Assembly (NCBI GenBank): GCA_000004985.1 | Contig: GG738908.1 | Direction: 5' to 3' (one strand) | Source: Naegleria gruberi | Lineage: Eukaryota | Length of the DNA stretch: 64,000 nucleotides | Part shown: positions 2,341-64,000 of the stretch, in pieces | How positions within the stretch are numbered: the first letter of the stretch is position 1 | Layout of the letters: each line of letters opens with the position of its first letter | Notes under the pieces: model-generated | The model's database searches: none | Seen by the model: the letters and a program-made list of their open reading frames with translations, nothing else | Told to the model about the DNA's origin: nothing | Translations under genes and position numbers: made by a program

Positions 2341-5070
2341 ATGGCAGGAGATTTTCGGAAGGCGTTTTATGCTGCGGAAAAAGGCAAAATTGATGAATTT
2401 AATAATTATTTTAATGAACAAGACGTTAATAAATCACAGAGAGGTGTTACCATGTTATATATTGCTTGCCAAAATGGACATTTAGAAATTGTTAAATTAT
2501 TATTATCATGTAAAACAATTGATGTTAATTTGAGTGTAAGTATTTTAATATTTAATTTAATTTTATATTTATAATATTAGACTGTAAGTATTTCAATGTT
2601 TAATATTTTTTATATTTAAAATATACATTAGACTGTAAGTATTTGATATTTAATATTATTTTATATTTTTAATATTAGTATGTAAGTATTTTAATATTTA
2701 ATATTTTTTATATTTTTAATATTAGTATGTAAGTATTTAATATTTAATATTATTTTATATTTATAATATTAGACCGTAAGTAATTAATATTTAATTTGAT
2801 ATTATTTATGTTTATAATATTAGTTTGTAAGTATTTAATTTTATTTATATTAATAATATTAGATGGTAAGTATTTTAATATTTAATATTATTTTATTTTT
2901 AATATTAGACACCATTATACATTGCGTGCCACTATGGACATTTAGAAATTGTTAAAGAATTACTTCAACATCCAAATATTGAAATAGATAGCGAATTGTC
3001 AGTGAATGGAATTAATATTCAAACAATTAAAAGTGACATGGAAAAGGAACAACAAATATTACAAGAACAAATAGAACAAAAAAAGTTGAAACAACTAGAA
3101 ATGGAAAGATTAGAAAGAAAAAGAATTACAAAATTAGAAATGGAAAGAATTGAAAAAGAACGTTTATTAAAAATAGAAAGAGAAAGAAAAGAATTTGAGA
3201 AAAAGCAACCATTCATAATCACATCTGAAACACTTTCAAAATTATGTTCACTCAACCAACAAGTAGATAATAATAGAAGAAAAGTTGAAAAACAATTTGA
3301 ATCAATTCAATCATTTTCTTCTTCTATTCAAATTGAGAAAGAATTTCAAGATGAATATTTAAGAATTTGTGATAATTTAAATAATTGTTGTAATTTAATT
3401 GAAAAATTAACAAGTAATAATTATAATATTGAAAATAATGAACATTTGTCAACTATTAATAATTTAATGAATAATATTAGAACTATATTGGAATTTATTA
3501 ATAATCAAAAATATTTATTTAAATTACAATCTTATTCAGAAGTATTAAATGAAAAATTAGAATTATTTAATGAATTTAATTCTCAATTTATTAAACAAGA
3601 ATTATTTGACAATATTGAAATGAGTGAACAATCTATTAAGAATATAAAAAGTATTAATATTGTTCCAACTCATAATAAATTTGGAAATGAAACTAAAACA
3701 ATATTACAACAAGTTACAAAACAATTATCAAATATTGTAAACTCTATCAATAATTGTAATGAAATTGATTTGACACAATTTTCAAATAATTTACAAAAAG
3801 CAATGGAATTATCAGAACAAGAAGAATTATATTTAAATAATATATTGTCAAATTGTAAAATATTAATTTCAGACAATGATCAAATGAATATTTTACAATT
3901 ATATAATTATTATCAAAAACAAGAATTAAATTGTAAATTATTAATTCAAGAAACAATTCCATATATAATTGAAAAATATGAAATGTTACAAAATATTATA
4001 AATATTATGAATAATTATTCAAATTTATCTGAACAATTTAAAACTATTCAAAGACAAAAAACAAGAATTNAAGAAATTTAATTGTGANNNNNNNNNNNNN
4101 NNNNNNNNNNNNNNNNNNNNNNNNNNNNNNNNNNNNNCATGAAAATTTGAAAATTGAAATTTTAAATCTAGAAAAGGAAAAGAAACAATTTTCAAATTCA
4201 AAGTCAAAGAAAAGTGAAGAAATTTCAAAGAAATTACAAAATTTGAAACAAAAAGAAATTGAAATTGAGAAGATGGAAAAGGAAATTAAAGAATCAAAAT
4301 CCAAACAATTAACAATTTCACTTCCAAGTTATTGGAAAAGAAACACATTCCAAACTTATTCGAAAAGATATTACATTATTGATGTTACACAATATTTAAA
4401 AGATACAATGCAAGAAATTATGAATGTATCGTGTAATTCTGCAACACTTGGATCTGGAAGAGATCAATTATTAAGAATTAATTATTCTAAATTAATTGTT
4501 TCAAGTGTTTCAAGAATTGAAAATTCAACACTTTTCACTTCATTCAAATCAAGAATGAATCATTTAATTTCATATCAAGATTCAATTAATTCACTTCAAG
4601 TTCAAACTGAAAATATTTCAAAAACATCAAAAACATTTGAATGGATGAAAACAATTGGATTAAATTCTAATATGAATGAAAAATATTTATGGCATGGAAC
4701 AAAACCTGAATTTGTGAATACAATTGCAGAACATGGATTTGATGAAAGAGTTGCAAATTTAAATGGATTATTTGGAGCAGGTATTTATTTTGCAGAATAT
4801 TGTTCAAAGAGTGATCAATATTGTACACCTGATCATTCAAATGAATATACTCTTTTATTATGTAGAGTTGTAATGGGAAGACAAATTCATTTCACAAAAC
4901 AAGTGATGAATAATCAGAGAAGACCACCTGAAATTTCAGGAAGTAATAATAGAGTTTATGATAGTGTTATTGGTCAATCAAATACTTCAACTAATTCATA
5001 TAGAGAATTCATTGTCTATGATAAATGTCAATGTTATCCTGAATTTATTATTAAATACAAGAGACAATAA
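2341..5070 (+). CDS. Ankyrin-repeat / coiled-coil / PARP catalytic domain protein (tankyrase-like architecture). Exon 1 is 2341..2535, the intron is 2536..2908, and exon 2 is 2909..5070. Exon 2 is interrupted by the assembly gap 4088-4137 with an apparent frame change across the gap.
   Basis: aaaaaaaATG at 2341. Exon 1 encodes the ANK repeat 'TMLYIACQNGHLEIVKLLL'. Exon 2 opens with a second ANK repeat 'TPLYIACHYGHLEIVKELL' in the same frame as ORF 2996..4081, which is K/E-rich coiled coil ('LEMERLERKRITKLEMERIEKERLLKIERERKEFEKK'). After the gap, ORF 4084..5070 carries a PARP catalytic signature: 'YLWHGT' (His), 'GIYFAEY' (Tyr), 'YREFIVYD' (Glu), i.e. an H-Y-E triad. Confidence 0.6.
2536..2908 (+). 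repeat. Intronic tandem array of about 8 mini-intron-like units (~45-50 nt each, GTAAGT...TTAG) separated by 3-nt spacers.
   Basis: Direct reading shows units beginning gtaagtat at 2536, 2584, 2635, 2682, 2729, 2776, 2827 and 2866, each ending 'aatattag' or 'acattag'. The spacers are ACT, ACT, TAT, TAT, ACC, TTT, ATG. The last acceptor ...ttag|ACACCATTATAC gives in-frame 'TPLYIAC'. Confidence 0.8.
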
Positions 5071-28239: not shown

Positions 28240-28352
28240 CCTTGTAAGCATCAGTGTTCAATACTAAACACTTGACAAATATGGAACTTTATAGTTCAAT
28301 CCGGAGTTGTACTATTTCGGAGTTCACTTCCGTTAGCCACAAATTAAAAAAA

Positions 28353-31300
28353 ATGTCATCACCACAACATGCAACCCTGCTTCTCGCCTTTTTNNNNNNN
28401 NNNNNNNNNNNNNNNNNNNNNNNNNNNNNNNNNNNNNNNNNNNNNNNNNNNNNNNNNNNNNNNNNNNNNNNNNNNNNNNNNNNNNNNNNNNNNNNNNNNN
28501 NNNNNNNNNNNNNNNNNNNNNNNNNNNNNNNNNNNNNNNNNNNNNNNNNNNNNNNNNNNNNNNNNNNNNNNNNNNNNNNNNNNNNNNNNNNNNNNNNNNN
28601 NNNNNNNNNNNNNNNNNNNNNNNNNNNNNNNNNNNNNNNNNNNNNNNNNNNNNNNNNNNNNNNNNNNNNNNNNNNNNNNNNNNNNNNNNNNNNNNNNNNN
28701 NNNNNNNNNNNNNNNNNNNNNNNNNNNNNNNNNNNNNNNNNNNNNNNNNNNNNNNNNNNNNNNNNNNNNNNNNNNNNNNNNNNNNNNNNNNNNNNNNNNN
28801 NNNNNNNNNNNNNNNNNNNNNNNNNNNNNNNNNNNNNNNNNNNNNNNNNNNNNNNNNNNNNNNNNNNNNNNNNNNNNNNNNNNNNNNNNNNNNNNNNNNN
28901 NNNNNNNNNNNNNNNNNNNNNNNNNNNNNNNNNNNNNNNNNNNNNNNNNNNNNNNNNNNNNNNNNNNNNNNNNNNNNNNNNNNNNNNNNNNNNNNNNNNN
29001 NNNNNNNNNNNNNNNNNNNNNNNNNNNNNNNNNNNNNNNNNNNNNNNNNNNNNNNNNNNNNNNNNNNNNNNNNNNNNNNNNNNNNNNNNNNNNNNNNNNN
29101 NNNNNNNNNNNNNNNNNNNNNNNNNNNNNNNNNNTATTGATGGTATCAATTCTTTCACAATTACTGGCTCTACATTTGCAAACAATTCCAAATTACACAT
29201 GACAACTGTTTTCAGCTCTACCTTGAGAGGTTTGACTTTTGAGGGAAATGAAAATGTTCTTTCTGCGAAAGGAATTGGTTCTTTTACATTGGAGCATTCA
29301 AATTTTACTCGCAATGGTAATCCAATTTATATTTCAGGAAATCAATTGACAAATCAATTTAGAAAAATTAGTTTTTGTTTATTTGAGGACAATTGGTCAA
29401 CCAGCAATGGTCTTATAACATTGGAACAGTTTCCCACACATGTGGAATTTAACAATTTCAGAAATAATTGGGCAGTGAATGGAGGAATAATTTATGCAAC
29501 TAGTTCCATAATTACTTTGGATAAAAATCAGTTTGTGGATACTTATGCAAGATTCATTGAAGGTTGTTTAGTTGATAATTGTGGAAATGGAGGAATTGCC
29601 TATATTTCTAATACTATTTTGTACATGTCCAATCTCATTATTCAAAATACTCAAGCAATTAGAGGAGGAATTGTTTATTCTGAGGGAAATTCTCGAATTC
29701 AAACCCAAAATTGTGATATTTCAGATAATATTGCTTCTTTGGCTGGTAATTTATTTTACTTTGGAGATGTTATTGATTTTAATGCCCAAAATTATTCGAA
29801 ATCTGACCTGAGTTCGAGGAAAACAACTCGAGCACTTTGGAGAACGGAATCTAGTCAACCTTACGATAATCAACGAATTGCCATCCAACCCGGGCAAACA
29901 ATACAATTGGATTTTGAGTATTTTGACATGTTTGACAACAGATTCAATAGAACAAATTCTGCTCCAATTATTAAGGCAAGTGATTCATCCAACATTCTTG
30001 TATCCCTCGTTTCAATTGATCCACTTTCCAATACTGACTTTAAATTCTTCTTGCAAGTGTCAGAAACTTCAAAAAGCTCAAATATTTCAGTATATCTCCC
30101 ATTCCATGACTTTACATTTGAGATTGATATTGATATTATTGGATGCCCTTTTGATTATGGTTTATCACCACTTTTAAATTCACACTACAACGTGTGTGTC
30201 TATAGAGGTTATATTATAATTGTATTCTCCTCTATTGGCATTGCAATCATTCTACTGGTTGCAATTTATTTATTGATCTATGTTGTTAAGAGATTACTCA
30301 AATTGAGAAAGAAGGAAATGACTGAAAAGGAAATTGCACAAAAGATTATTGATAAGAATTTTGTTTTTTCTATCAATACTGATAATGAGCACACTCCATT
30401 ATTATCAAAACTGGAAGTTGCCAAGATTAGTAATATCTTAATTCCAATTGAGGATATTGAAATCATCAAAAGAATTGGAGAAGGAGCTAATGGTACTGTA
30501 TACTTAGCTAAATGGCAAGGAAATCGTGTAGCTCTAAAAAGTTTAAAATTCGAAAGGGATAGCACTGACTTTGAAAATGAAGCATCTCTCCTTAATAATT
30601 TGAGACATCCTTCTATTGTGAGATTTTATGGAATTGTAGTGTCTTCTTCAGTTAAATACATGGTTACAGAGTTTGTGGAAAATGGAAGTTTGGATGCAGC
30701 CATTCATAATTCCAAAATTGGAAAGAAGAAACTTGATTTACAAACAAAATTACAAATTTTGAGAGGAATTGCAAATGGAATGAACTATCTTCATAATTTG
30801 AAAACTCCATGTCTTCACAGAGATTTGAAATGTCAAAATATTCTTCTCAATTCCAACATGGAACCAAAGGTTACAGATTTTGGATTGTCAAAATTGACTT
30901 TAAATTCAATGACATTGACTTGCAATATTGGAACAGCTCTTTACATGGTAAGTTTTCAAATTTAAGAGAGTTAAACCGAGTCAATCATTGTAAAGTCTCC
31001 TGAATTATTTGGAAGTGGTTACAAAATTTCATACAAATTGGACGTTTACAGTTTCTCCATCATCATGTACGAATTATTCTTTGAGGAAACTCCATTCTTT
31101 AGCTCATCAGCCAAGATGAGAAAATTTATCATTTCATCCACTGAACAATCACCAGAAGATGATCATGATACAATGAATTTTGGTTTTGCAATTCCAGTAA
31201 AAGTTTCGAAAGGAGAACGGCCAATGCTTCCCTGGACTAATGATGAGGAATGTGAAATGTGGATTAAGGAATTTATAGAACCCTATGAAGGAGGAGGAGG

Positions 31301-49942: not shown

Positions 49943-51423
49943 ATGTCCTACTCCCTCTTTGTGCCTCTTTCTCTGAGTCTTTCTGACGATGCACCAGGTT
50001 TTAATACCAGCAATACTGCAGCAATAGATTCATCATCATCTCATCAGCAACACCTTCGGAGGAGGAAAATCTTGGACCATTGTGCTGGAAATGTGATGGC
50101 ACTGGCTTGCAAAAAAGAAAAGGACCAAAACCTCCCAAATCATCAAATAATAATCATATAATTAATAATAATAGTAATAATAATAATTTAATAGATGATG
50201 AAATTCCACCATGTAAAGTTTGTAAAGGCATGAAAAGGTTGAAAATTAAAAAACAATTATTGGAAGCCAAAAGTCGGATGGGAGAAATTACTCAAGTTTC
50301 CATTCCAAGTGATTGGAACAAAATAGTAGGACTAGGAGACGAGCAAGAAGGTTCTAGCTATGATAATGTAGAACATTTAAATCAAGTACTTCTCACACAA
50401 GAAGAACTCCAACCAAAAGAAGGAGAACAATTGTGTGGTCTTGTTGGAGGATGGAGAATATTCCAAAAGAAAGGAGGACATCGTTGGACTACTGATGATA
50501 TTGTTACAGCTTGGGCAGCATGTACTGCAGTGAAAACTATTTTACCTCTCATTAGGAAATTTAACAGAGAAAATCAACCATCATCATCATCTTCATCGTC
50601 TACTGATATTTCAATCGAGGAAGAAGATGCTGATATCAAATGGGAAGATTTGATTTCAAATTATTTAGATATCGGATGTGGAAATGGTTCTGTTCTAATG
50701 ATGGTAGCTCGGAATATGCCACTCACAACCAAATGCATTGGAGTTGAGGCAAGAAGTGAAGCTGTCTCTCTCGCCCGTAGGAGCATTGCTTTCAATTGTG
50801 GATTGGATTCAACTCGTATTCAGGTGAGAAATAGAGATTTTCGAGAAATTAATTCCAATACCATGATGAATGTATTACCTGAAGGAAGTGGTTTTTTCGA
50901 TCTAGTAACAGGCACCCCTCCTTACTTTAGAGTAAATTTCAAACATAATAGCAACAAGGTGGAAGAAGCATTAATAAGACAAGGTGGTATGCCTTCTAAT
51001 AAGGACTCTTGTCCTGCAAGATGTGAATTCAGAGGAGGAATAGAGGCCTACTGCCAAGCTGCGTCTGTTGCCATGAAACCAATGAGTGGTGTGTTTGTGG
51101 TGTGTGAAAATTGGTTGAATCATGATCGTGTGGTAATGGCCGCAAAAGAAGCAAGGCTGCACATTTACTCTATGAATAAGATAAGCGGAAAAGAGGGTAA
51201 AGATGTACTATTTTGTGTCTATTCAATGATCAGCCAACAATTGGTTGACTCTATATCGGAAAGCACATATGTACAAATAAGCAACTATTCAAAATTAATA
51301 GAAACCACTATCAACTCGCAAGCAGTTCGAGATATGGATGGAGCGTGGACAAATGATTATGGACAATTATTGAGGGATGTTCTCTACCCAGTTGCAAGCC
51401 TTCATCCCAGTGGTAAATATTAA
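49943..51423 (+). CDS. Class I SAM-dependent methyltransferase with a (D/N)PPY-type motif ('GTPPYF', HemK/N6-MTase-like) and an N-terminal CxxC...CxxC zinc-ribbon-like region. There is a frame discontinuity between the ATG at 49943 and frame 1 at about 50005-50080.
   Basis: aaaaaaaATG at 49943 is in the frame of ORF 49877.., whereas the body (ORF 50080..51423, 'CWKCDGTG', 'CKVCKGMKRL', motif I 'LDIGCGNGSVLMMVA', motif IV 'LVTGTPPYF') is in another frame with no in-frame ATG before 'MKRL'. No GT..AG intron fits, so this is either an assembly indel or non-canonical. Confidence 0.5.
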
Positions 51424-51758
51424 CAACAATATTTTGACCTACCAAATACTTCATTTTCAATTTCCATTTATTTAAAAGAGATGATTGACTTTGAAATGTG
51501 TCAACATTTGAGAAGAAAAATCATGTTTGCCCGCTGTAACAATTATTGTAGATCAATTGTAGTTTCTCGTAGAAATTCAGGTATGTGCATGAAAATTTAC
51601 TTTAGCTGTTTAGCCAGCTACAATGGGTCTTTGCTTGCCTCTTATTTGTACAGAAGCCTAATGATGGCGATGTGATGGAGGTTGATGGGCGAATGTAATA
51701 TTCTTCACCTACCATTAAGGAAGAAGCCTTTTAAAAGCAAGAAAAAAAGAACACCGTT

Positions 51759-54700
51759 ATGAGCGAATCACATGATATCGGCAACAGTGGTGCTCTCAAA
51801 CATCATCATCATCAATTAGATAATAGTAGTAAGGAAAATGGTGGCTCAATTGTTAGCTCTTCATCAAATACCCAATCAAATATCAGCAAGGGCGCATTTT
51901 CCTTCATGAAGAGCATAATATATGATAAGCTTTTTAATTTTCTAGCAATGGCCAAATCTTCCGAGAGCAGAAATGGAAGAAAATGGCAATCAATCTATTA
52001 TTTGTTTCATATCTATTTCTTTTTCGTCATCTTAATAATACCTACTCTATCAACATATTATCCAAACCTCTATACATCAGATACAACACAATATGCATCA
52101 AGAATTCAGAGTTTCCCTCTCCCTTTGGATACTATGGTGGTTTTGTATTTAGAGTTTTGAACTACTTCATAACGTTTGGCGTTGATACTCTTAGTGCTCC
52201 CTATTATTTTACTATTGCACTGTCATCAGTCATCATATTACTTTACTCATGCTTCCCACTCTTGGTTGTTTACACTCACAAAAAACTCTATGGAAGCGCC
52301 AAGAAACGACTCAATTCTTTTGTGGGCATATTTTCCTTCCTTGTTCTTGTTTTTGCTCCTTTCAGTATCTTTGTAATGACTAGTTTTATTGATTGTGATT
52401 TGAAAACAACAATAAGTGTGGATGGTTTTGATGTATATCCACTGATCAGGTTTCCAACCTATGCATGCTACGATTCAAGCAATGTCATTCTCATTGTAAT
52501 TAACTATATAGGAATGGCCATCTTGTTGGGAAGTTCTTTGATGGCTGTACATATTCTTCCAATGGGTAATCCAGAATCTTCCATACCCTTTCTTTCTGAA
52601 AACCAATTCACATTGATGGGAATTATTGGAAACACCATTTTTAGAATTGGTATTGTTTTTGCAATTCCATATTATCTACTTTATTTGAGAGCTATTGTAC
52701 ACGCAGTATTTTCAATTGTTTCAATAGTCTATCTTTTTTTTGGAGTGCCATTCTTTAAAAGATATGAAAACTCTGTTTATTCTGCAGTATTATTTGGTTC
52801 ATTTGGATCAAGTATTGGAGTTTTGATTAGCTGCCTTGTAAATACTTCAAACGATAATAATTTGGGAGCTGGAATGCTTGGTCTGGTATTTGGATTAACA
52901 ATAATTTTCATGTCAATTGGATATATTGTTATGGAAATTTACACAAGATTAATGGTACATAAAATTAGAAAGATTTTCCACCAATTCTTGAACCAAACAA
53001 CAGACTCCATGTCAGAGGATGATGGCTTGACAAGCATAATGGAAAGATACTGTGCTGAGATATTTTCGACCATTTCAAACACATCACTAACAGCATTCAG
53101 AATGTATATGCAATTCAATATCAAGAAAAAGGTTGGCTATGCTGTTAACGAAAGAACGGATAGCAATATCATTTTGGTATTCATCAAGACATATGCTCCC
53201 AAGAAGAATTTCGATTCACCAATCCTATTATTGTACTCTTCCTTATTTATTTCTCATCAATGGACTGATCCTAATAGGTATTCCTTTGCACTTTATCTAT
53301 TGAAGAGAACTGAGAAGAATCATAACAATAATTATTTTGTAAAACTTTCAGTCTTGTGCAGATGTAGAGATATGGAAATGCATATTGACAAGTCACATAA
53401 TGGAAGAGGAAATTTGGAAGTGAAAGCACTTTTGGATAAACTGGAACAAAAGCAAGAGGAATTGAAGAATGTACATAGAGCATTTTGGAAAGAAATGACA
53501 GCAGAACGTCCTAAAGAGGAGAAAATCTACACTATCAATGCTATTTCAGCAGAAATTATGACATACTGTGATGAATCCTATGAGCACTTACTAGCAAACT
53601 TTCCTCATGATAAAACAGTGATAAGATACTATGCTAATTATGTTGAAAATATCAAGTTGGATAAGGAACTATCTACTGGACTCTTTGAAGAAGCACAAGT
53701 TTTAGAAGAGGAAGAATCTAAAAACTCGAGAACTTCAACCTATCTCTTCAACACCTCAAGAAAGGGATCCAAATTCAAAACCAACCGAGTAGCTCCAGCA
53801 AATTCTCACAGTTTTTCAGACAATTTGAGAACCAGTGAAAATAGTCTTACATCTTTTACCCAAAGAAGACCATCATCTCCTACAAATCACACCATTACTC
53901 CGGAATTGAGTGTTATCGACAAACAAATACTCGAAGATTCAGATGATTTTCGTGGGGTAGAAGAAGAATTAACTCCACAACAACTTCACTACCGTCGGGC
54001 TGCTGTCTTTAGAAATGCTTTAAACACTCCATATGAATCCTCTATTAGAAAATCTATTTTCATAGGACTTGCTGTACTCTCAGTTCTTTTATTGGCTGCT
54101 ATTTTTTCTGTCTCTGTTTATTATGATATTGAAGTTACGAAAACATATTTGGTAAAATCCAGCTGTCTTACTATGAGTTCACCTGGTGCAATGCTTCGAG
54201 ATATTAGATTGATGCAAATTCTAACTGAAACATATGGAAATTTGAAATGGAAAATACCTGAAAATGGAACCGTAGAGTACCAAGAATTACAGACCTATAT
54301 GAGCTATTATACCAAAGCTTTTACTTTCCAACAACAAAATTTATTGAACCTTCAAGCTGTTTCACAATCAGGATCTTTTTCTGAAAGAATGTATCAGGAC
54401 TATACAGTTGAGGACAAGACCATAATGGTACCAATTTCTAACGATACATCTTCAAACACACTTCTAGAATATACAAACACATTCAAAAAAACAACATCAG
54501 TCAGAGAAATTACTCAAGAATTATTAACCCATGCCAATTCTGTTCTAGAATTACAAATAGACTATAACAAATCTCTAAATAGTTATCCATTCATGTACAT
54601 TTTTCAAAATAGAAAGTATGCAGCTGATGCTTTTTACACCTTTTGCAAAGCGTAAGTTTTTAAATTTTGAATGCTATCTTAATATCATCTTACAGATTTC

Positions 54701-57332
54701 AAGAAAGTGAAAAAATTCACATTCAAGAATCTAGAGATATCCTAGGCCAAATTCTGCTTGGATGCTCTGTTGGATTTTCTACTATAATTCTAATTAGTAT
54801 CTCAATTTCAAGATTAGAAATGGAAAAATCTTCAATTATATTTAAACTATATAAAACCATTTCGAAGGATATTATTGGAGTTATTTTTCAAGAGTTGGAT
54901 AAGAAACATAAGAATGATGAGCTTAAAGGACTTAAAAAGAAACGACTTCCAAAACCAAAACATACAACAGTAATTGTTTCATTTATTATTATTGCAATAT
55001 TTTTGGTTTGTTCTGGAATTTTCTATCAGGAAATGTTGACAAATGTTGAAAGAGCAAATATTGCCATGCAAAATGTTGATATTGCATCTCTAATGATCAG
55101 AACAACCAATAGAATTACTCTGAGATTGAATGAAATGTTTTCCTATCTCAGTATTCCACTAGGAAAATCGGTAAATAATCCTGCTATTGTTACCGCTTCT
55201 GTTATTGCACAATACAGAGCAGATGTGAGAACATTTACAACAACTGTACAATCTCTATTCTCTCAATTAGTTTACGGAACTAACAGTACAAACTCAATTA
55301 TTGGCATTTACCCTAAAATTGATGAAATGTTAAAGGGAGATCCTACTTGTGATAATGTTACCTTATTGTATTGTGGAAGTTTGGAACAAATGGTATCAAT
55401 TTATACTATTTTGGGTGGAGGAATGTCTGAAAACTTTTTCAATCCAATCTATGCCAAAAACTCTAAAGAAGTGTTGAATTATCTTGTAAAAATGTATAAT
55501 ATGAACGATATGGTTTTCGAAAAGCTTGTTGATTTCATGGATTTGTTGGTTACCTATACTGGTCAAGCTAGTTTATCATCAACTATTGGACTTTTTATTG
55601 CTGGATTGATAGTCTTGTTAATTTCCAATTACACCATGTATTTATCTATTATTACCTATGACAGACAAGTTTCCAGTTTGAGAGGAATGTTGAACTATTT
55701 ACCTTACGAGTGGATTGAATCGAATGAAACTGTAAAGAATTTTGTTTTCTATAATTCCTTGCCACTCGTTAATCAAAGGAATAATTTAAAGAAGGGAAGT
55801 GATACACTCAACAATTTACTTCATTCCATGGTTGATGGTGCAGTGCTTTCTAACGAGAAGGGAGAAATTCTTCTATTCAACACTGCATGTCAAAGACTAT
55901 TCTCTAAAATTCCTTCAGAAGTAATGGGACTCAAATTCTACTCATTATTTGATAAGGCCAACGAATCTAAATTAATAGACATTGCCAGAAATTGTAGAGA
56001 TTACCTTGTTGAAGGAGAGAACAATAAGAATGGTGAAGTTATGGAGTTGAATTGTATCAGAAAGAATCTATCCACATTCCCTGCACAAGTTAATATTTTC
56101 GTCACAAGAGATGGTGATAATAAGGTTGTCATTGTATGCTTTATCAAGGATATTACTACAGAAAAGAAGGCAAATACATTACTAAGTGAAGAAAAGAAGA
56201 ATTCTGAAAAGTTGTTGAGAAATATTCTACCAGAATCTGTTGCATTGAAATTGAAGAGTGGTAACAGCTTTGTTGCTGAAAGATTTAATGATGTTAGTGT
56301 ATTCTTTTCAGATATGTAAGTATTCCACAATTATTATTATTCATAATATTCATATATATTCCATAATTATTATTCAATATATTAATATTACTCAAATTAA
56401 ATAGGGTTGGATTTACAGCATTATCATCGGATATGAATCCATCTGATTTGATATTACTATTGAATAATGTAGTGAATGGATTTGATGATTTGACTGACAA
56501 GTATGAATTGGAAAAGATTAAAACTATTGGAGATGCATACTTTTGTGTTGGAGGTTTACCAATCAATCCACAATCTGATCACCCTGAAAGAACGCTCCGA
56601 TTTGCTATGGATTGTTTTAGTGTAATTAGAGGATTCAACCAAGCTACAAATGGAGAGAAGGTTATCAATATTAGGTTAGTATTATTATTATTTGTAATAT
56701 TTAGGTAGATGTTAATATTGTTGTTGTGCTCATCCATCTATATAGAATTGGTATTAATACTGGATCAGTTGTAGCTGGTGTTATAGGAAAGAAGGTAAGT
56801 TTTTATAATTGTTATTAATAATATTCATGATGATAATTGTTGAATAGAAATTTGCATATGTGAGTGTTGTTATTATTAAAACATTATTAATTGTTTAATA
56901 TTTTCATACTGATGCTGAATGATGAATAATTATTATTAGGATCTGTGGGGAGTAAGTAAATTATAATTAAAATTCAAATACTAACCAAACATCAAGGATA
57001 CAATCAACACTGCCTCCAGAATGGAATCTAACAGCAAGCCAGGGCGTATTCAAATTTCACGATCAACCTATGAAAGGTATGTGTTAAAATCTTCTATTTG
57101 TTGATATATTATTCTACTTTATAGAGTGTACGATTTAGGATTTGAATTTGAAGAAAGAAGTATTGATGTGAAAGGAAAGGGTGTATGTACTTGTTACTTG
57201 ATGAATGAAAGGTATCACGATAATCCACTGGATATTCAAGTTGTTGGTAATAATACTGTTGTTCCACCTGTGGCTTCCGAGAATCCAATCATGACAGCCT
57301 TGTCTGATGACCAGACTTCATTGACACAATAA
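51759..57332 (+). CDS. Polytopic membrane class III nucleotidyl (adenylyl/guanylyl) cyclase with PAS domain, 8 or more exons: 51759..~52100 (frame change near 52000-52140), ..54651, 54696..56315, 56405..56674, 56745..56793, 56848..56859, 56940..56951, 56997..57076, 57134..57332.
   Basis: N-terminus 'MSESHDIGNSGALKHHHHQ', then about 10 TM helices, further TMs at about residues 700 and 900, and PAS 'MVDGAVLSNEKGEILLFNTACQRLF'. The cyclase core spans the introns: 'RFNDVSVFFSDM|VGFTALSS...KIKTIGDAYFCVGGLP...INIR|[59 protein letters not shown]...'. Donors are GTAAGT, GTTAGT, GTGAGT or GTATGT and all acceptors end in AG, as listed. Confidence 0.7.
56848..56951 (+). other. Two consecutive 12-nt microexons (56848..56859 'KFAY' and 56940..56951 'DLWG') within the cyclase catalytic domain.
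   Basis: ...gttgaatag|AAATTTGCATAT|gtgagt and ...attattag|GATCTGTGGGGA|gtaagt. Their inclusion restores the conserved cyclase segment GxxxP(R/K)YxLWGDTVN ('[22 protein letters not shown]'). Confidence 0.65.
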
Positions 57333-58963: not shown

Positions 58964-60526
58964 ATGACTGCACTCTTCATCTCTTTCCTTCTTCTCCTTT
59001 GCACATCACTGAAACTATCACATGCTACTACCTATCCAGTTTATAACATTTCCAATTTTTTGGGAGGTGGTAGTGTTTTAGGAGATGGTGGATTGGCTGT
59101 GAATGCCAAAGTAGAATATACTGAAGGAGTTGCAGTCAATTCTAAAGGAGAAGTATTAGTAGTACAGAATTTTTATGGTCGTGTTAGAAAGGTTGATAAA
59201 AATGGATATGTTACAACGATAGCAGGATTTGGAACTTCTGGTGATAGTAGTGGAAATGGAGGTTTGGCAACTAATGCAATGCTTGGCTACCCTGCAGGAA
59301 TTACAGTTAACGATAAAGATGAAATTTATCTTGTGGAATATGGAACTCACATGGTTCGAAAGATTTTGGTGAATGGAACAATTCAAGAATTTGCTGGAAT
59401 TTTAAATGGTGGAGGATTTGGAGGAGATAATGGATTGGCAACGAATGCTATTTTTAACCATCCGTATGGAGTTTCAGTTAATCCATTAACAGGTGATGTT
59501 TACATTTCAGATTTTTCGAATAATCGAATTCGTAAGGTAGATTCGAGTGGAATCATTTCAACATATGTTGGAACTGGAAATACAGAGTATGGAGCTGATG
59601 ACATTTTGGCTGTTAATGCTAATATTAACAGTCCTTATTATATTGCAACAGGTCCAAATGGTGATTTATACATCCCATTAGTAGGATCATCTAGAATTTG
59701 TAAAGTTTCGTATAGTACTGGAAAAATTACAACCATAGCAGGTACTGGAGCTTATGGGTATAGTGGAGATGGTGGATTGGCAATTAATGCTGTGATTAGA
59801 TATCCAAAAAGTATAGCCATAGGTAAACATGGTGAAATTTTTTTTACTGATTCGGATAATCAAGTCATTCGTCGAATTACTCCAGATGGAATCATTACAA
59901 CCATAGCGGGCACTGGTAATTTTGGTTATTCTGGTGATGGCGGTTTAGCAACAAGTGCTGATATCAGTAAGCCAACTGGAATAGCTGTAGATTCGAATGG
60001 AACCATTTACTTTTGCGATAATAACAATAATAGAGTTAGAAAGTTAGTTCCTTACTGTTTGGATGGAAAGCTAGTGAATGGAACTTGTGAATTTTCTTGT
60101 TTTGGAATCAAGAACAATCTTGCAACTGTTTGTAATGGTCATGGAAATTGTTTGGCCACAAATAGTTGTTTATGTGATTCTGGATGGAAAGGAAATGTAC
60201 AATGTTCTCAATTCAGTTGTGATGGTTTGAATAATTGCAATGGGCATGGCAGTTGTGTTTTGAATAATACTTGTCAATGTCAAGATGGTTGGAAAGGAAA
60301 TTTAGAGTGTTCTCAATATAGTTGTGAAAGAGTTAATAATTGTAATGGAAGAGGAGCTTGTGTAGGTGTCAATACTTGTTTGTGTGTTAGTGGATATTTT
60401 GGAAAAGAATGTCAATACAAAACCTGTTTTGCAAATAGTAACAATGAAATGCTAAATTATGGAAATAGACCATTTACCATGTCTGAAAGATTTTGTCAAA
60501 AGATAAATAAACAGTTATTGGTTTAA
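58964..60526 (+). CDS. Secreted NHL-repeat beta-propeller plus tenascin-type EGF-repeat protein (no TM or kinase within the ORF). Related in ectodomain architecture to the receptor kinase at 39822..44082.
   Basis: aaaaaaaATG at 58964, signal peptide 'MTALFISFLLLLCTSLKLSHA'. NHL blades 'VYISDFSNNRIRKVD', 'IFFTDSDNQVIRRIT', 'IYFCDNNNNRVRKLV'. EGF repeats 'CNGHGNCLATNSCLCDSGWKGNVQCSQFSC', 'CNGHGSCVLNNTCQCQDGWKGNLECSQYSC'. Confidence 0.65.
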   Translation: MTALFISFLLLLCTSLKLSHATTYPVYNISNFLGGGSVLGDGGLAVNAKVEYTEGVAVNSKGEVLVVQNFYGRVRKVDKNGYVTTIAGFGTSGDSSGNGGLATNAMLGYPAGITVNDKDEIYLVEYGTHMVRKILVNGTIQEFAGILNGGGFGGDNGLATNAIFNHPYGVSVNPLTGDVYISDFSNNRIRKVDSSGIISTYVGTGNTEYGADDILAVNANINSPYYIATGPNGDLYIPLVGSSRICKVSYSTGKITTIAGTGAYGYSGDGGLAINAVIRYPKSIAIGKHGEIFFTDSDNQVIRRITPDGIITTIAGTGNFGYSGDGGLATSADISKPTGIAVDSNGTIYFCDNNNNRVRKLVPYCLDGKLVNGTCEFSCFGIKNNLATVCNGHGNCLATNSCLCDSGWKGNVQCSQFSCDGLNNCNGHGSCVLNNTCQCQDGWKGNLECSQYSCERVNNCNGRGACVGVNTCLCVSGYFGKECQYKTCFANSNNEMLNYGNRPFTMSERFCQKINKQLLV

Positions 60527-61177: not shown

Positions 61178-64000
61178 TGTAAATTTGATGGTTTCATTTC
61201 GTATATTGATAGATATATAAAGGTCAGGTCAGTATCAACTTTTGAATTATGGACTTTGAGAAGTCAAATGTTTGGGACGTGAATCTACTCATTAGATTTC
61301 ATAGGTATTGCTAATAAAGGAACATTTCATTGATTTATTGATCATAACGGTCAAATTGAGTTGAATGGAAGTGAATCACATGTTGATTCATCGTGGTTGG
61401 GTAGTTTCGCCACGTAGTGGTGCAACTACCAACCTTTGTAGATTGAATCAGGTTGATTTGCATGCAATATGAATAAGTAACATTATCAAGAGTGATTATT
61501 CACCAATTCAATGACCAATATTCAATAATCGGTTTGATTCAATCAATAGCTTAATCATCAAGCTTTGAATATTAATATTCCAGTAATCAACGGCAGTCTA
61601 TTTTTAAATTTAATCAAAGACCATATATAGTATCTTGACTTTTATGATATGTAAACTATCTAGATGTGTTCTATATTGAATAATCTATATGAAAATGAGA
61701 AGAAATAAAATTAACTCTTAAATTGAGTTTATTTATATTACTATATATGGTATTATTTCTTACAGAGTCTTCCACAGAACCCACTCTTGAACTAATAATT
61801 GTACTAGAGCGTGTGAGAAACATAATGGTGGTGAAAGTGATCAGTAACTTGTTGAAATGACTGAGATGGAATGTAAACTATGGTCTAAATGTCATGTATT
61901 TGTAACTAGACAGTGTCAACTCCGCCAAAGTGCCTTAAAATAGATTGATATCATCAGATACACTTCTACGCACCACATATACCTCATAGAACGAGTTATG
62001 ACATTATATATTAGANNNNNNNNNNNNNNNNNNNNNNNNNNNNNNNNNNNNNNNNNNNNNNNNNNNNNNNNNNNNNNNNNNNNNNNNNNNNNNNNNNNNN
62101 NNNNNNNNNNNNNNNNNNNNNNNNNNNNNNNNNNNNNNNNNNNNNNNNNNNNNNNNNNNNNNNNNNNNNNNNNNNNNNNNNNNNNNNNNNNNNNNNNNNN
62201 NNNNNNNNNNNNNNNNNNNNNNNNNNNNNNNNNNNNNNNNNNNNNNNNNNNNNNNNNNNNNNNNNNNNNNNNNNNNNNNNNNNNNNNNNNNNNNNNNNNN
62301 NNNNNNNNNNNNNNNNNNNNNNNNNNNNNNNNNNNNNNNNNNNNNNNNNNNNNNNNNNNNNNNNNNNNNNNNNNNNNNNNNNNNNNNNNNNNNNNNNNNN
62401 NNNNNNNNNNNNNNNNNNNNNNNNNNNNNNNNNNNNNNNNNNNNNNNNNNNNNNNNNNNNNNNNNNNNNNNNNNNNNNNNNNNNNNNNNNNNNNNNNNNN
62501 NNNNNNNNNNNNNNNNNNNNNNNNNNNNNNNNNNNNNNNNNNNNNNNNNNNNNNNNNNNNNNNNNNNNNNNNNNNNNNNNNNNNNNNNNNNNNNNNNNNN
62601 NNNNNNNNNNNNNNNNNNNNNNNNNNNNNNNNNNNNNNNNNNNNNNNNNNNNNNNNNNNNNNNNNNNNNNNNNNNNNNNNNNNNNNNNNNNNNNNNNNNN
62701 NNNNNNNNNNNNNNNNNNNNNNNNNNNNNNNNNNNNNNNNNNNNNNNNNNNNNNNNNNNNNNNNNNNNNNNNNNNNNNNNNNNNNNNNNNNNNNNNNNNN
62801 NNNNNNNNNNNNNNNNNNNNNNNNNNNNNNNNNNNNNNNNNNNNNNNNNNNNNNNNNNNNNNNNNNNNNNNNNNNNNNNNNNNNNNNNNNNNNNNNNNNN
62901 NNNNNNNNNNNNNNNNNNNNNNNNNNNNNNNNNNNNNNNNNNNNNNNNNNNNNNNNNNNNNNNNNNNNNNNNNNNNNNNNNNNNNNNNNNNNNNNNNNNN
63001 NNNNNNNNNNNNNNNNNNNNNNNNNNNNNNNNNNNNNNNNNNNNNNNNNNNNNNNNNNNNNNNNNNNNNNNNNNNNNNNNNNNNNNNNNNNNNNNNNNNN
63101 NNNNNNNNNNNNNNNNNNNNNNNNNNNNNNNNNNNNNNNNNNNNNNNNNNNNNNNNNNNNNNNNNNNNNNNNNNNNNNNNNNNNNNNNNNNNNNNNNNNN
63201 NNNNNNNNNNNNNNNNNNNNNNNNNNNNNNNNNNNNNNNNNNNNNNNNNNNNNNNNNNNNNNNNNNNNNNNNNNNNNNNNNNNNNNNNNNNNNNNNNNNN
63301 NNNNNNNNNNNNNNNNNNNNNNNNNNNNNNNNNNNNNNNNNNNNNNNNNNNNNNNNNNNNNNNNNNNNNNNNNNNNNNNNNNNNNNNNNNNNNNNNNNNN
63401 NNNNNNNNNNNNNNNNNNNNNNNNNNNNNNNNNNNNNNNNNNNNNNNNNNNNNNNNNNNNNNNNNNNNNNNNNNNNNNNNNNNNNNNNNNNNNNNNNNNN
63501 NNNNNNNNNNNNNNNNNNNNNNNNNNNNNNNNNNNNNNNNNNNNNNNNNNNNNNNNNNNNNNNNNNNNNNNNNNNNNNNNNNNNNNNNNNNNNNNNNNNN
63601 NNNNNNNNNNNNNNNNNNNNNNNNNNNNNNNNNNNNNNNNNNNNNNNNNNNNNNNNNNNNNNNNNNNNNNNNNNNNNNNNNNNNNNNNNNNNNNNNNNNN
63701 NNNNNNNNNNNNNNNNNNNNNNNNNNNNNNNNNNNNNNNNNNNNNNNNNNNNNNNNNNNNNNNNNNNNNNNNNNNNNNNNNNNNNNNNNNNNNNNNNNNN
63801 NNNNNNNNNNNNNNNNNNNNNNNNNNNNNNNNNNNNNNNNNNNNNNNNNNNNNNNNNNNNNNNNNNNNNNNNNNNNNNNNNNNNNNNNNNNNNNNNNNNN
63901 NNNNNNNNNNNNNNNNNNNNNNNNNNNNNNNNNNNNNNNNNNNNNNNNNNNNNNNNNNNNNNNNNNNNNNNNNNNNNNNNNNNNNNNNNNNNNNNNNNNN

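Follow-up and report, generated by a model that had tools for sequence, protein, structure and literature searches.

A predicted receptor-type adenylate cyclase of the TmcB-PAS-cyclase family in Naegleria gruberi, with a probable one-base indel behind its broken reading frame

Class IIIa membrane adenylate cyclases include the mycobacterial enzyme Rv1625c (Cya), which has six transmembrane (TM) helices, and the mammalian enzymes, which have two sets of six and two catalytic domains; two 6-TM cassettes with two catalytic domains also define the metazoan/Dictyostelium ACA type. When one class III cyclase domain contains the complete set of catalytic residues, two copies combine into an ATP-preferring homodimer that has two active sites, and guanylate cyclases carry a Glu...Cys pair in place of the Lys...Asp pair. 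In Dictyostelium, the gene tmcB is described, in papers that cite the original work, as acting in the cyclic AMP (cAMP) signalling pathway of sexual development (Muramoto et al. 2005, as cited in PMC8516963 and PMC12750705). Naegleria has ~80-100 cyclases (PMC9928731). Here we analyse an AT-rich (~33% GC) stretch of 64,000 nt from the Naegleria gruberi draft assembly (GCA_000004985.1, contig GG738908.1), called the window below, and within it a gene on the plus strand at 51759-57332 whose reading frame is broken near its 5′ end. We regard it as likely that this locus is a single gene encoding a class IIIa adenylate cyclase of the receptor type, from a family that we term TmcB-PAS-cyclase, that the break is most likely a one-base indel, and that the public protein model of the locus is a mis-prediction.

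Splicing the listed open reading frames (ORFs) at GT-AG sites read from the window sequence yields eight exons and seven GT-AG introns, running from an ATG at 51759 to a TAA stop at 57330-57332, the limits that the original prediction gave. The introns are 44-89 nt long, contain 15-24% GC and have the donors GTAAGT, GTTAGT, GTGAGT or GTATGT. The first exon is divided between ORF 51759..52160 in frame 0 and ORF 51983..54655 in frame 2. Left uncorrected, the spliced ORF from ATG 51983 comprises 1,639 codons, and the addition of one base in AGTTTCCCTCTCC produces a continuous spliced frame of 1,714 codons, so that the protein is 1,714 residues long rather than the roughly 1,500 first estimated. 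From 52109 on, the model spliced from ATG 51983 matches the public N. gruberi protein P0001 with 100% identity, so that it departs from it in the first ~45 residues only, and mapping P0001 back on the window confirms every exon junction from that point onward.

Homology follows frame 0 as far as 'SRIQ', which ends at 52109, and frame 2 from 'PFGYYGG', which starts at 52121. The family protein P0033 brackets the shift with STYYSNDYTASTLSSRIVAPFGFYGGW; the window translates as STYYPNLYTSDTTQYASRIQ in frame 0 and as 'PFGYYGGF' in frame 2. The comparison confines the break to 52110-52120, inside AGTTTCCCTCTCC. In phmmer comparisons the 117-residue frame-0 product matches family N-termini collinearly, always just upstream of the frame-2 homology and over both the segment before TM1 and TM1 itself, with E-values, computed against a small set of family hits only, of 3e-13 for P0096, 6e-9 for P0020, 6e-8 for P0033 and below 1e-3 for nine further proteins. 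When these family proteins are used as tblastn queries, the alignment switches from frame 0 to frame 2 inside the window. Most alignments from the exhaustive family search begin at residue 46-48 of the frame-2 ORF, and the matched proteins have 75-170 residues further upstream. Codon-usage log-likelihood favours frame 0 up to ~52100 and frame 2 beyond. The N-terminal homology, the tblastn frame switch, the alignment starts and the codon usage show that frame 0 holds the true start of the cyclase gene and that the two frames are not a chance overlap of unrelated ORFs.

The frame switch, as originally claimed, is thus real, and no acceptable GT-AG intron accounts for it. Enumeration of all GT..AG pairs gave three that formally join the two frames (52004-52080, 52026-52102 and 52026-52111). 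All three remove the conserved core of TM1, use donors (GTTTCA, GTCATC) unlike those of the seven real introns, and have a higher GC content, and they were rejected. Between the two explanations offered at the outset, an assembly indel or an unusual event, the former is the most likely, and programmed frameshifting as a form of the latter is unsupported. Most probably a one-base indel arose within the T3/C3 runs, either during assembly of the draft or in the clone that was sequenced. Runs of N in the window (4088-4137, 28394-29134 and 62016-64000) are assembly gaps, and thus mark the sequence as a draft.

It is possible, though unlikely, that the frameshift is genuine in the NEG-M genome, leaving either a recently inactivated paralogue or an N-terminally altered protein whose translation begins at ATG 51983, without TM1 and the genuine N-terminus. 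In its favour, the one sequence available shows the break, frame 2 is by chance open starting at ATG 51983, and the loss of one copy would be tolerable in a family that is large and redundant. Inactivation would nonetheless have left the remaining 1,600 codons intact, with all catalytic residues and the splice sites of seven introns kept. A protein without TM1 would have an odd number of helices and would lose its strong positive-inside pattern. The position of the break in short homopolymer runs of a gapped draft assembly likewise speaks for an indel.

The cyclase domain itself matches Guanylate_cyc (PF00211) with 186 bits against a cutoff of 21.9 and covers profile positions 2-182 of 183. 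Among solved sequences it lies nearest to mammalian AC9, AC8 and AC5 and to mycobacterial Cya/Rv1625c (E 1e-50 to 1e-63). Both metal-binding Asp residues (in FFSDMVGFT and TIGDAY), the Arg of NIRIG, and the Asn and Arg of TINTASRM align to the C1 and C2 domains of AC9, as do the Lys (EKIKTIGD) and Asp (FAYDLWG) of the adenine-specifying pair to their counterparts. FFSDMVGFT spans the junction of exons 2 and 3, with the Asp codon in exon 2, and the final complete codon of exon 3 (56672-56674) encodes the phosphate-binding Arg of IRIG. The catalytic motifs are found family-wide, and the Lys/Asp pair is kept by every family member in which the motif was located. Preceding the domain, a transducer helix SEKLLRNILPESVALKLK aligns with ADWLLRNIIPYHVAEQLK, which precedes C2 in AC9, and is helical in a predicted structure (model 2, below). 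From these residues the domain is predicted to be a class IIIa adenylate cyclase competent to form a homodimer, since the single domain holds all of the catalytic residues; the homodimer had been proposed from the presence of one domain.

That the enzyme is instead a guanylate cyclase, or a catalytically dead scaffold, appears very unlikely. The Pfam family spans both activities, and relatives carry the automatic UniProt name 'guanylate cyclase domain-containing', but the pair that sets specificity is Lys/Asp, as in the C2 domains of adenylate cyclases and in Rv1625c, and not Glu/Cys. The complete set of metal-binding and transition-state residues argues against a dead scaffold.

A further alternative is a recoding event, in which programmed −1 ribosomal frameshifting would carry translation from one frame into the other at T_TTC_CCT (52112-52118). 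This heptamer has the X_XXY_YYZ form in frame 0, and after a −1 slip on it reading would resume in precisely the frame where the homology goes on. However, its Y triplet is CCC, a poor slippery triplet, and the 92 nt downstream fold no better than shuffled sequences (z −0.53). Paralogues and orthologues have uninterrupted ORFs and do not conserve the site, and the T3/C3 runs are an equally expected place for an indel. Because neither downstream structure nor conservation is seen, the fit of the heptamer is probably a coincidence with the homopolymer runs. We consider programmed frameshifting extremely improbable and a real recoding signal here a minor alternative.

P0001 is deposited as 'predicted protein [Naegleria gruberi]' and is 1,950 residues long. 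Its upstream exons lie at 49943-49996, 50194-51099 and 51481-51579, after which it jumps to 52109. In this way it exits a methyltransferase-like ORF 108 codons ahead of the stop of that ORF, takes 33 codons (51481-51579) from intergenic sequence, and skips 51759..52109, so that the true N-terminus and TM1 are missing. The PPYF motif of the methyltransferase lies at ORF residue 283, and P0001 cuts the fold ~57 residues past PPYF, compared with ~125 residues in 3lpm. Judged from these comparisons, P0001 is a false fusion of the methyltransferase-like gene and the cyclase, very probably produced by a gene predictor working around the frame break. The reading that the deposited 1,950-residue methyltransferase-cyclase fusion is right and that the ORF at 51759 is intronic is hardly credible even though the exons of this annotation map to the window, given that the skipped ORF is homologous to family N-termini, that no family N-terminus read starts with a methyltransferase-like sequence, that Pfam finds no methyltransferase domain in the eight relatives scanned (P0002, P0003 and six distant members), and that the model truncates a fold by leaving its ORF early and inserts an intergenic 'exon'.

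Hydropathy analysis of the frame-corrected protein reveals 12 hydrophobic segments, with TM1 at residues 76-100, seven helices between 145 and 400, TM9 at 761-794, TM10 at 979-1003, TM11 at 1051-1080 and TM12 at 1254-1285. The resulting order is a cytosolic N-terminus, eight TM helices, a TmcB-type tetratricopeptide repeat (TPR) domain, TM9, a four-helix bundle, TM10, a basic cytosolic loop, TM11, a second four-helix bundle, TM12, a PAS domain, the transducer helix and the cyclase domain. With the N-terminus set inside, Lys/Arg residues no more than 15 positions away from the membrane number 29 on the inner side versus 8 on the outer side. Each of the three large outside loops contains exactly two Cys residues, and the positions of Cys and of N-x-S/T in the outside loops are conserved in the family consensus. 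Four Pfam domains score above their gathering thresholds: Guanylate_cyc (E 6e-55), PAS_9 (E 1e-11), PAS (E 3e-9) and TPR_TmcB (E 2e-12). For TPR_TmcB (PF25474) the score is 47.7 bits against a cutoff of 27, and paralogue P0002 reaches 67 bits.

Structure predictions with AlphaFold2 (AF2) agree with this arrangement. Model 1, which extends from TM2 to the first extracellular region and was built from 26 aligned sequences, has a predicted confidence (pLDDT) of 77 overall and ~90 in the membrane block; it contains seven TM helices, a beta-hairpin in the Cys-bearing loop, an all-helical TPR region, a disordered linker, TM9 and a helical bundle. In model 2, from TM10 to the start of the cyclase domain (pLDDT 81.5), TM11 leads into a helical bundle that returns via TM12 and is followed by a five-stranded PAS domain and a long helix. 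In the predicted models the extracellular regions thus consist of an antiparallel four-helix bundle between two TM helices. Alignment of the two TM-bundle-TM modules (54038-54810 and 54952-55656) by hhalign gives a probability of 45% with E 2e-4 over 197 collinear columns, a result that is suggestive of an old internal duplication but does not settle it.

These results, like the identity to P0001, bear out the original prediction that one gene unites a polytopic module, further regions bounded by TM helices, which are extracellular in our topology, a PAS fold and one cyclase domain. Several of its particulars change. Eight TM helices, by both hydropathy and AF2, replace a block of about ten, and four more flank the extracellular regions. 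The His run noted at the N-terminus is present but only four residues long (KHHHHQ). The suggestion that the block is transporter- or channel-like is unsupported, in that solved structures offer no convincing counterpart to the AF2 model of the block.

The layout of eight TM helices, TPR, bundles, PAS and cyclase is the standard one for a multigene heterolobosean family and is conserved across Heterolobosea. When 1.84 billion representatives were searched exhaustively with HMMER, the 890-residue ORF matched 115 proteins, themselves representatives at the 50% identity level, with E <= 1e-3, and 43 of these matches fell below 1e-30. Nearly all hits of at least 1,200 residues end in PAS and cyclase domains, many short hits are unspliced ORF fragments from the same genes, and both TM-bundle-TM modules are kept at fixed positions across the family. 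Members occur in N. gruberi (several loci), N. fowleri (at least 10 loci), N. lovaniensis, Willaertia magna, Acrasis kona, Pharyngomonas kirbyi and the amoebozoan Cavostelium apophysatum. The family spans no fewer than five heterolobosean genera, along with one amoebozoan, and for Pharyngomonas and Cavostelium the shared architecture is seen by Pfam in transcriptome ORFs. The architecture, first called unusual, is so relative to textbook cyclases, but it is standard for the family to which these 115 representatives belong and is already in public annotation, here as a chimera. Family members are annotated as uncharacterised proteins or generic cyclases only, with the A. kona copy named 'adenylate cyclase', and literature searches returned no description of a TmcB-PAS-cyclase fusion or of its layout.

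Distant relatives without a cyclase domain combine the TM block with TPR_TmcB in Mesostigma, where three PAS domains are present, and in Geranomyces. The alignments are weak but collinear: Mesostigma P0107 matches query residues 75-581 (E 1e-7), and the Geranomyces 'TmcB/TmcC TPR repeats' protein P0125 matches residues 71-339 (E 2e-4). In addition, positions 2492-7210 of L001 from the Logan assembly ERR13935973 hold an intronless gene for 1,572 residues with a polytopic N-terminus, a PAS domain and a cyclase domain, in which no TPR_TmcB is detectable. This gene may belong to a more divergent branch of the same architecture.

Taken together, these features suggest how the receptor might operate. 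Two chains would dimerise by way of their cyclase domains, with the PAS domains and transducer helices probably contributing, to give a homodimer in the plasma membrane whose two symmetric active sites convert ATP to cAMP. A signal taken up outside by the four-helix bundles, or within the membrane by the 8-TM block, would move TM12, and this movement might be relayed by the PAS domain and then the transducer helix, altering the geometry of the cyclase dimer and hence the rate of cAMP synthesis. The cytosolic TPR domain would probably dock a partner protein. Signalling of this kind would resemble that of bacterial TM-bundle-TM sensor kinases and chemoreceptors and of the 6-TM cyclase Rv1625c.

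Several results weigh against this interpretation of the locus or limit how far it can be taken. No transcript, read-level or second-assembly data that would tell an assembly error from a genuine frameshift mutation were found for the locus: exact-product look-ups of both ORFs gave no match to a second copy, a gapped DNA pattern over the break had no match in metagenome contigs, and protein searches gave no second N. gruberi cluster for the locus. Adenylate cyclase activity and specificity are predicted from residues alone. The solved PAS structures closest by identity (22-24%) are the heme sensors EcDOS and FixL, and the domain has the PAS fold by Pfam and by its five strands in model 2. However, sequence inspection found no conserved heme-ligating His of the FixL/DOS type in the PAS core or the family consensus, the only His of the core being in the N-terminal cap, and no NCRFLQ-like motif with the flavin-binding Cys of LOV domains in the PAS core. 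A Foldseek search of model 1 against solved structures gave nothing below E 0.1, leaving the 8-TM block without a convincing structural relative, and its role is therefore a guess. The four-helix-bundle fold is generic, designed bundles score on a par with sensor domains, and Pfam at E <= 1 gives no match in either extracellular region.

The family accounts for a large share of Naegleria cyclases and is present also in the pathogen N. fowleri, and although its members are already public as uncharacterised proteins, the membrane module of this receptor-type cyclase has been undescribed. A bolder proposal, which we put forward tentatively and consider rather doubtful, treats the fusion as a 'Rosetta stone', in which the TmcB-type 8-TM and TPR module would itself serve adenylate cyclase as a receptor or as a docking unit for regulators. 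Were this true, the cyclase-less TmcB of Dictyostelium would control cAMP signalling by direct action on a cyclase, and a new class of eukaryotic receptor cyclases, sensing through two extracellular four-helix bundles, would be defined. The fusion of a TmcB module to cAMP synthesis provides a concrete hypothesis for the poorly understood tmcB phenotype of Dictyostelium. More practically, the analysis supplies a corrected gene model and localises a one-base frame break, where the chimeric public model would mislead surveys of domain architecture and orthology calls.

Table 1. Features of the cyclase locus and its upstream neighbour, in window coordinates.
Feature	Position	Strand	Description
Separate upstream gene	49943..51423	+	Zinc-knuckle and class I methyltransferase-like ORF; own stop 51421-51423
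Coding segment 1	51759..52109	+	Frame 0, 117 codons; Ser/His-rich cytosolic N-terminus and TM1 (51984-52058, IYYLFHIYFFFVILIIPTL)
Frame break	52110..52120	+	One base short inside AGTTTCCCTCTCC; T3 and C3 runs
Remainder of exon 1	52112..54651	+	Frame 2; TM2-TM8, helical/TPR region, disordered linker, TM9, most of extracellular bundle 1
TM2-TM8	52190-52957	+	Exon 1
TPR_TmcB	53417-53722	+	Exon 1; Pfam; within cytosolic helical/TPR region
TM9	54038-54139	+	Exon 1
Extracellular bundle 1	54140 to 54735	+	Begins in exon 1, ends in exon 2
Intron 1	54652..54695	+	44 nt, GTAAGT..ACAG, phase 2; junction agrees with P0001
Exon 2	54696..56315	+	End of bundle 1, TM10, TM11, bundle 2, TM12, PAS, transducer helix, cyclase start
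TM10	54736-54810	+	Exon 2; followed by basic cytosolic loop
TM11	54952-55041	+	Exon 2
Extracellular bundle 2	55042-55560	+	Exon 2
TM12	55561-55656	+	Exon 2
PAS	55810-56157	+	Exon 2; followed by transducer helix
Cyclase domain	56272 (exon 2) to 57206 (exon 8)	+	Pfam and alignments
Exon 3	56405..56674	+	Cyclase domain; specificity Lys and second metal Asp (EKIKTIGDAY)
Exon 4	56746..56794	+	Cyclase-domain segment following the Arg of IRIG
Exon 5	56848..56859	+	12-nt micro-exon, KFAY; residues in P0001, family-conserved
Exon 6	56940..56951	+	12-nt micro-exon, DLWG; holds adenine-specifying Asp
Exon 7	56997..57076	+	Transition-state Asn and Arg
Exon 8	57125..57332	+	End of cyclase domain (to 57206), C-terminal tail, stop TAA

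Several other observations were made on the gene structure and the window. Five of the seven introns crowd the last 1 kb of the cyclase gene, and the two 12-nt micro-exons are consecutive and lie in the cyclase catalytic core. Further downstream, positions 58964-60526 on the plus strand encode a secreted-looking protein of 520 residues in which teneurin-type NHL repeats (TEN_NHL, E 8e-37) precede EGF repeats that are teneurin-like, a pair that is notable for a heterolobosean. ORFs called over 28254-30965 cross a gap of N and are not real, and the final 1,985 bases of the window are all N.

The closest known proteins are heterolobosean and uncharacterised, and include N. gruberi NAEGRDRAFT_72081 and _73350, N. 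fowleri FDP41_011611, _001642 and _003313, N. lovaniensis C9374_003576, W. magna ABK040_011351 and A. kona KAL0483827. All have the full layout and are collinear over ~1,600 residues at 26-40% identity, with like positions of Cys in the outside loops, a like PAS domain and like K/D cyclase motifs. The gene described here differs from them only by the frame break and by an insert of ~20 residues after TM1, as seen against paralogue P0002.

Comparison with more distant systems separates the catalytic part of the protein from its membrane part. Rv1625c/Cya and the mammalian membrane adenylate cyclases align over both the catalytic domain and the preceding transducer helix, and as in Rv1625c, one domain holds all catalytic residues, which implies a homodimer. 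In contrast to the 6 TM helices of Rv1625c and the 2x6 of the mammalian enzymes, the membrane part here has 8+2+2 helices and is accompanied by extracellular bundles, TPR and PAS domains. With one cyclase domain, the protein differs from the ACA type and is, as first noted, neither a 2x6-TM enzyme with two catalytic domains nor a single-TM receptor cyclase. The bacterial TM-four-helix-bundle-TM sensors (McpN, PilJ, PcaY, NarQ, HK9 and Adeh_2942) have a comparable arrangement, without a sequence-family match to this protein by Pfam at E <= 1; unlike them, it is eukaryotic, carries two modules in tandem, and has paired Cys residues and N-glycosylation sequons. The Dictyostelium tiny macrocyst proteins TmcB and TmcC (PF25474) share the TPR_TmcB domain, a likeness that runs through Pfam and the cyclase-less TmcB-like proteins rather than through a direct alignment to TmcB. 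In the Naegleria protein, unlike in TmcB and TmcC, this module is fused covalently to PAS and predicted adenylate cyclase domains and is joined by two extracellular bundle modules.

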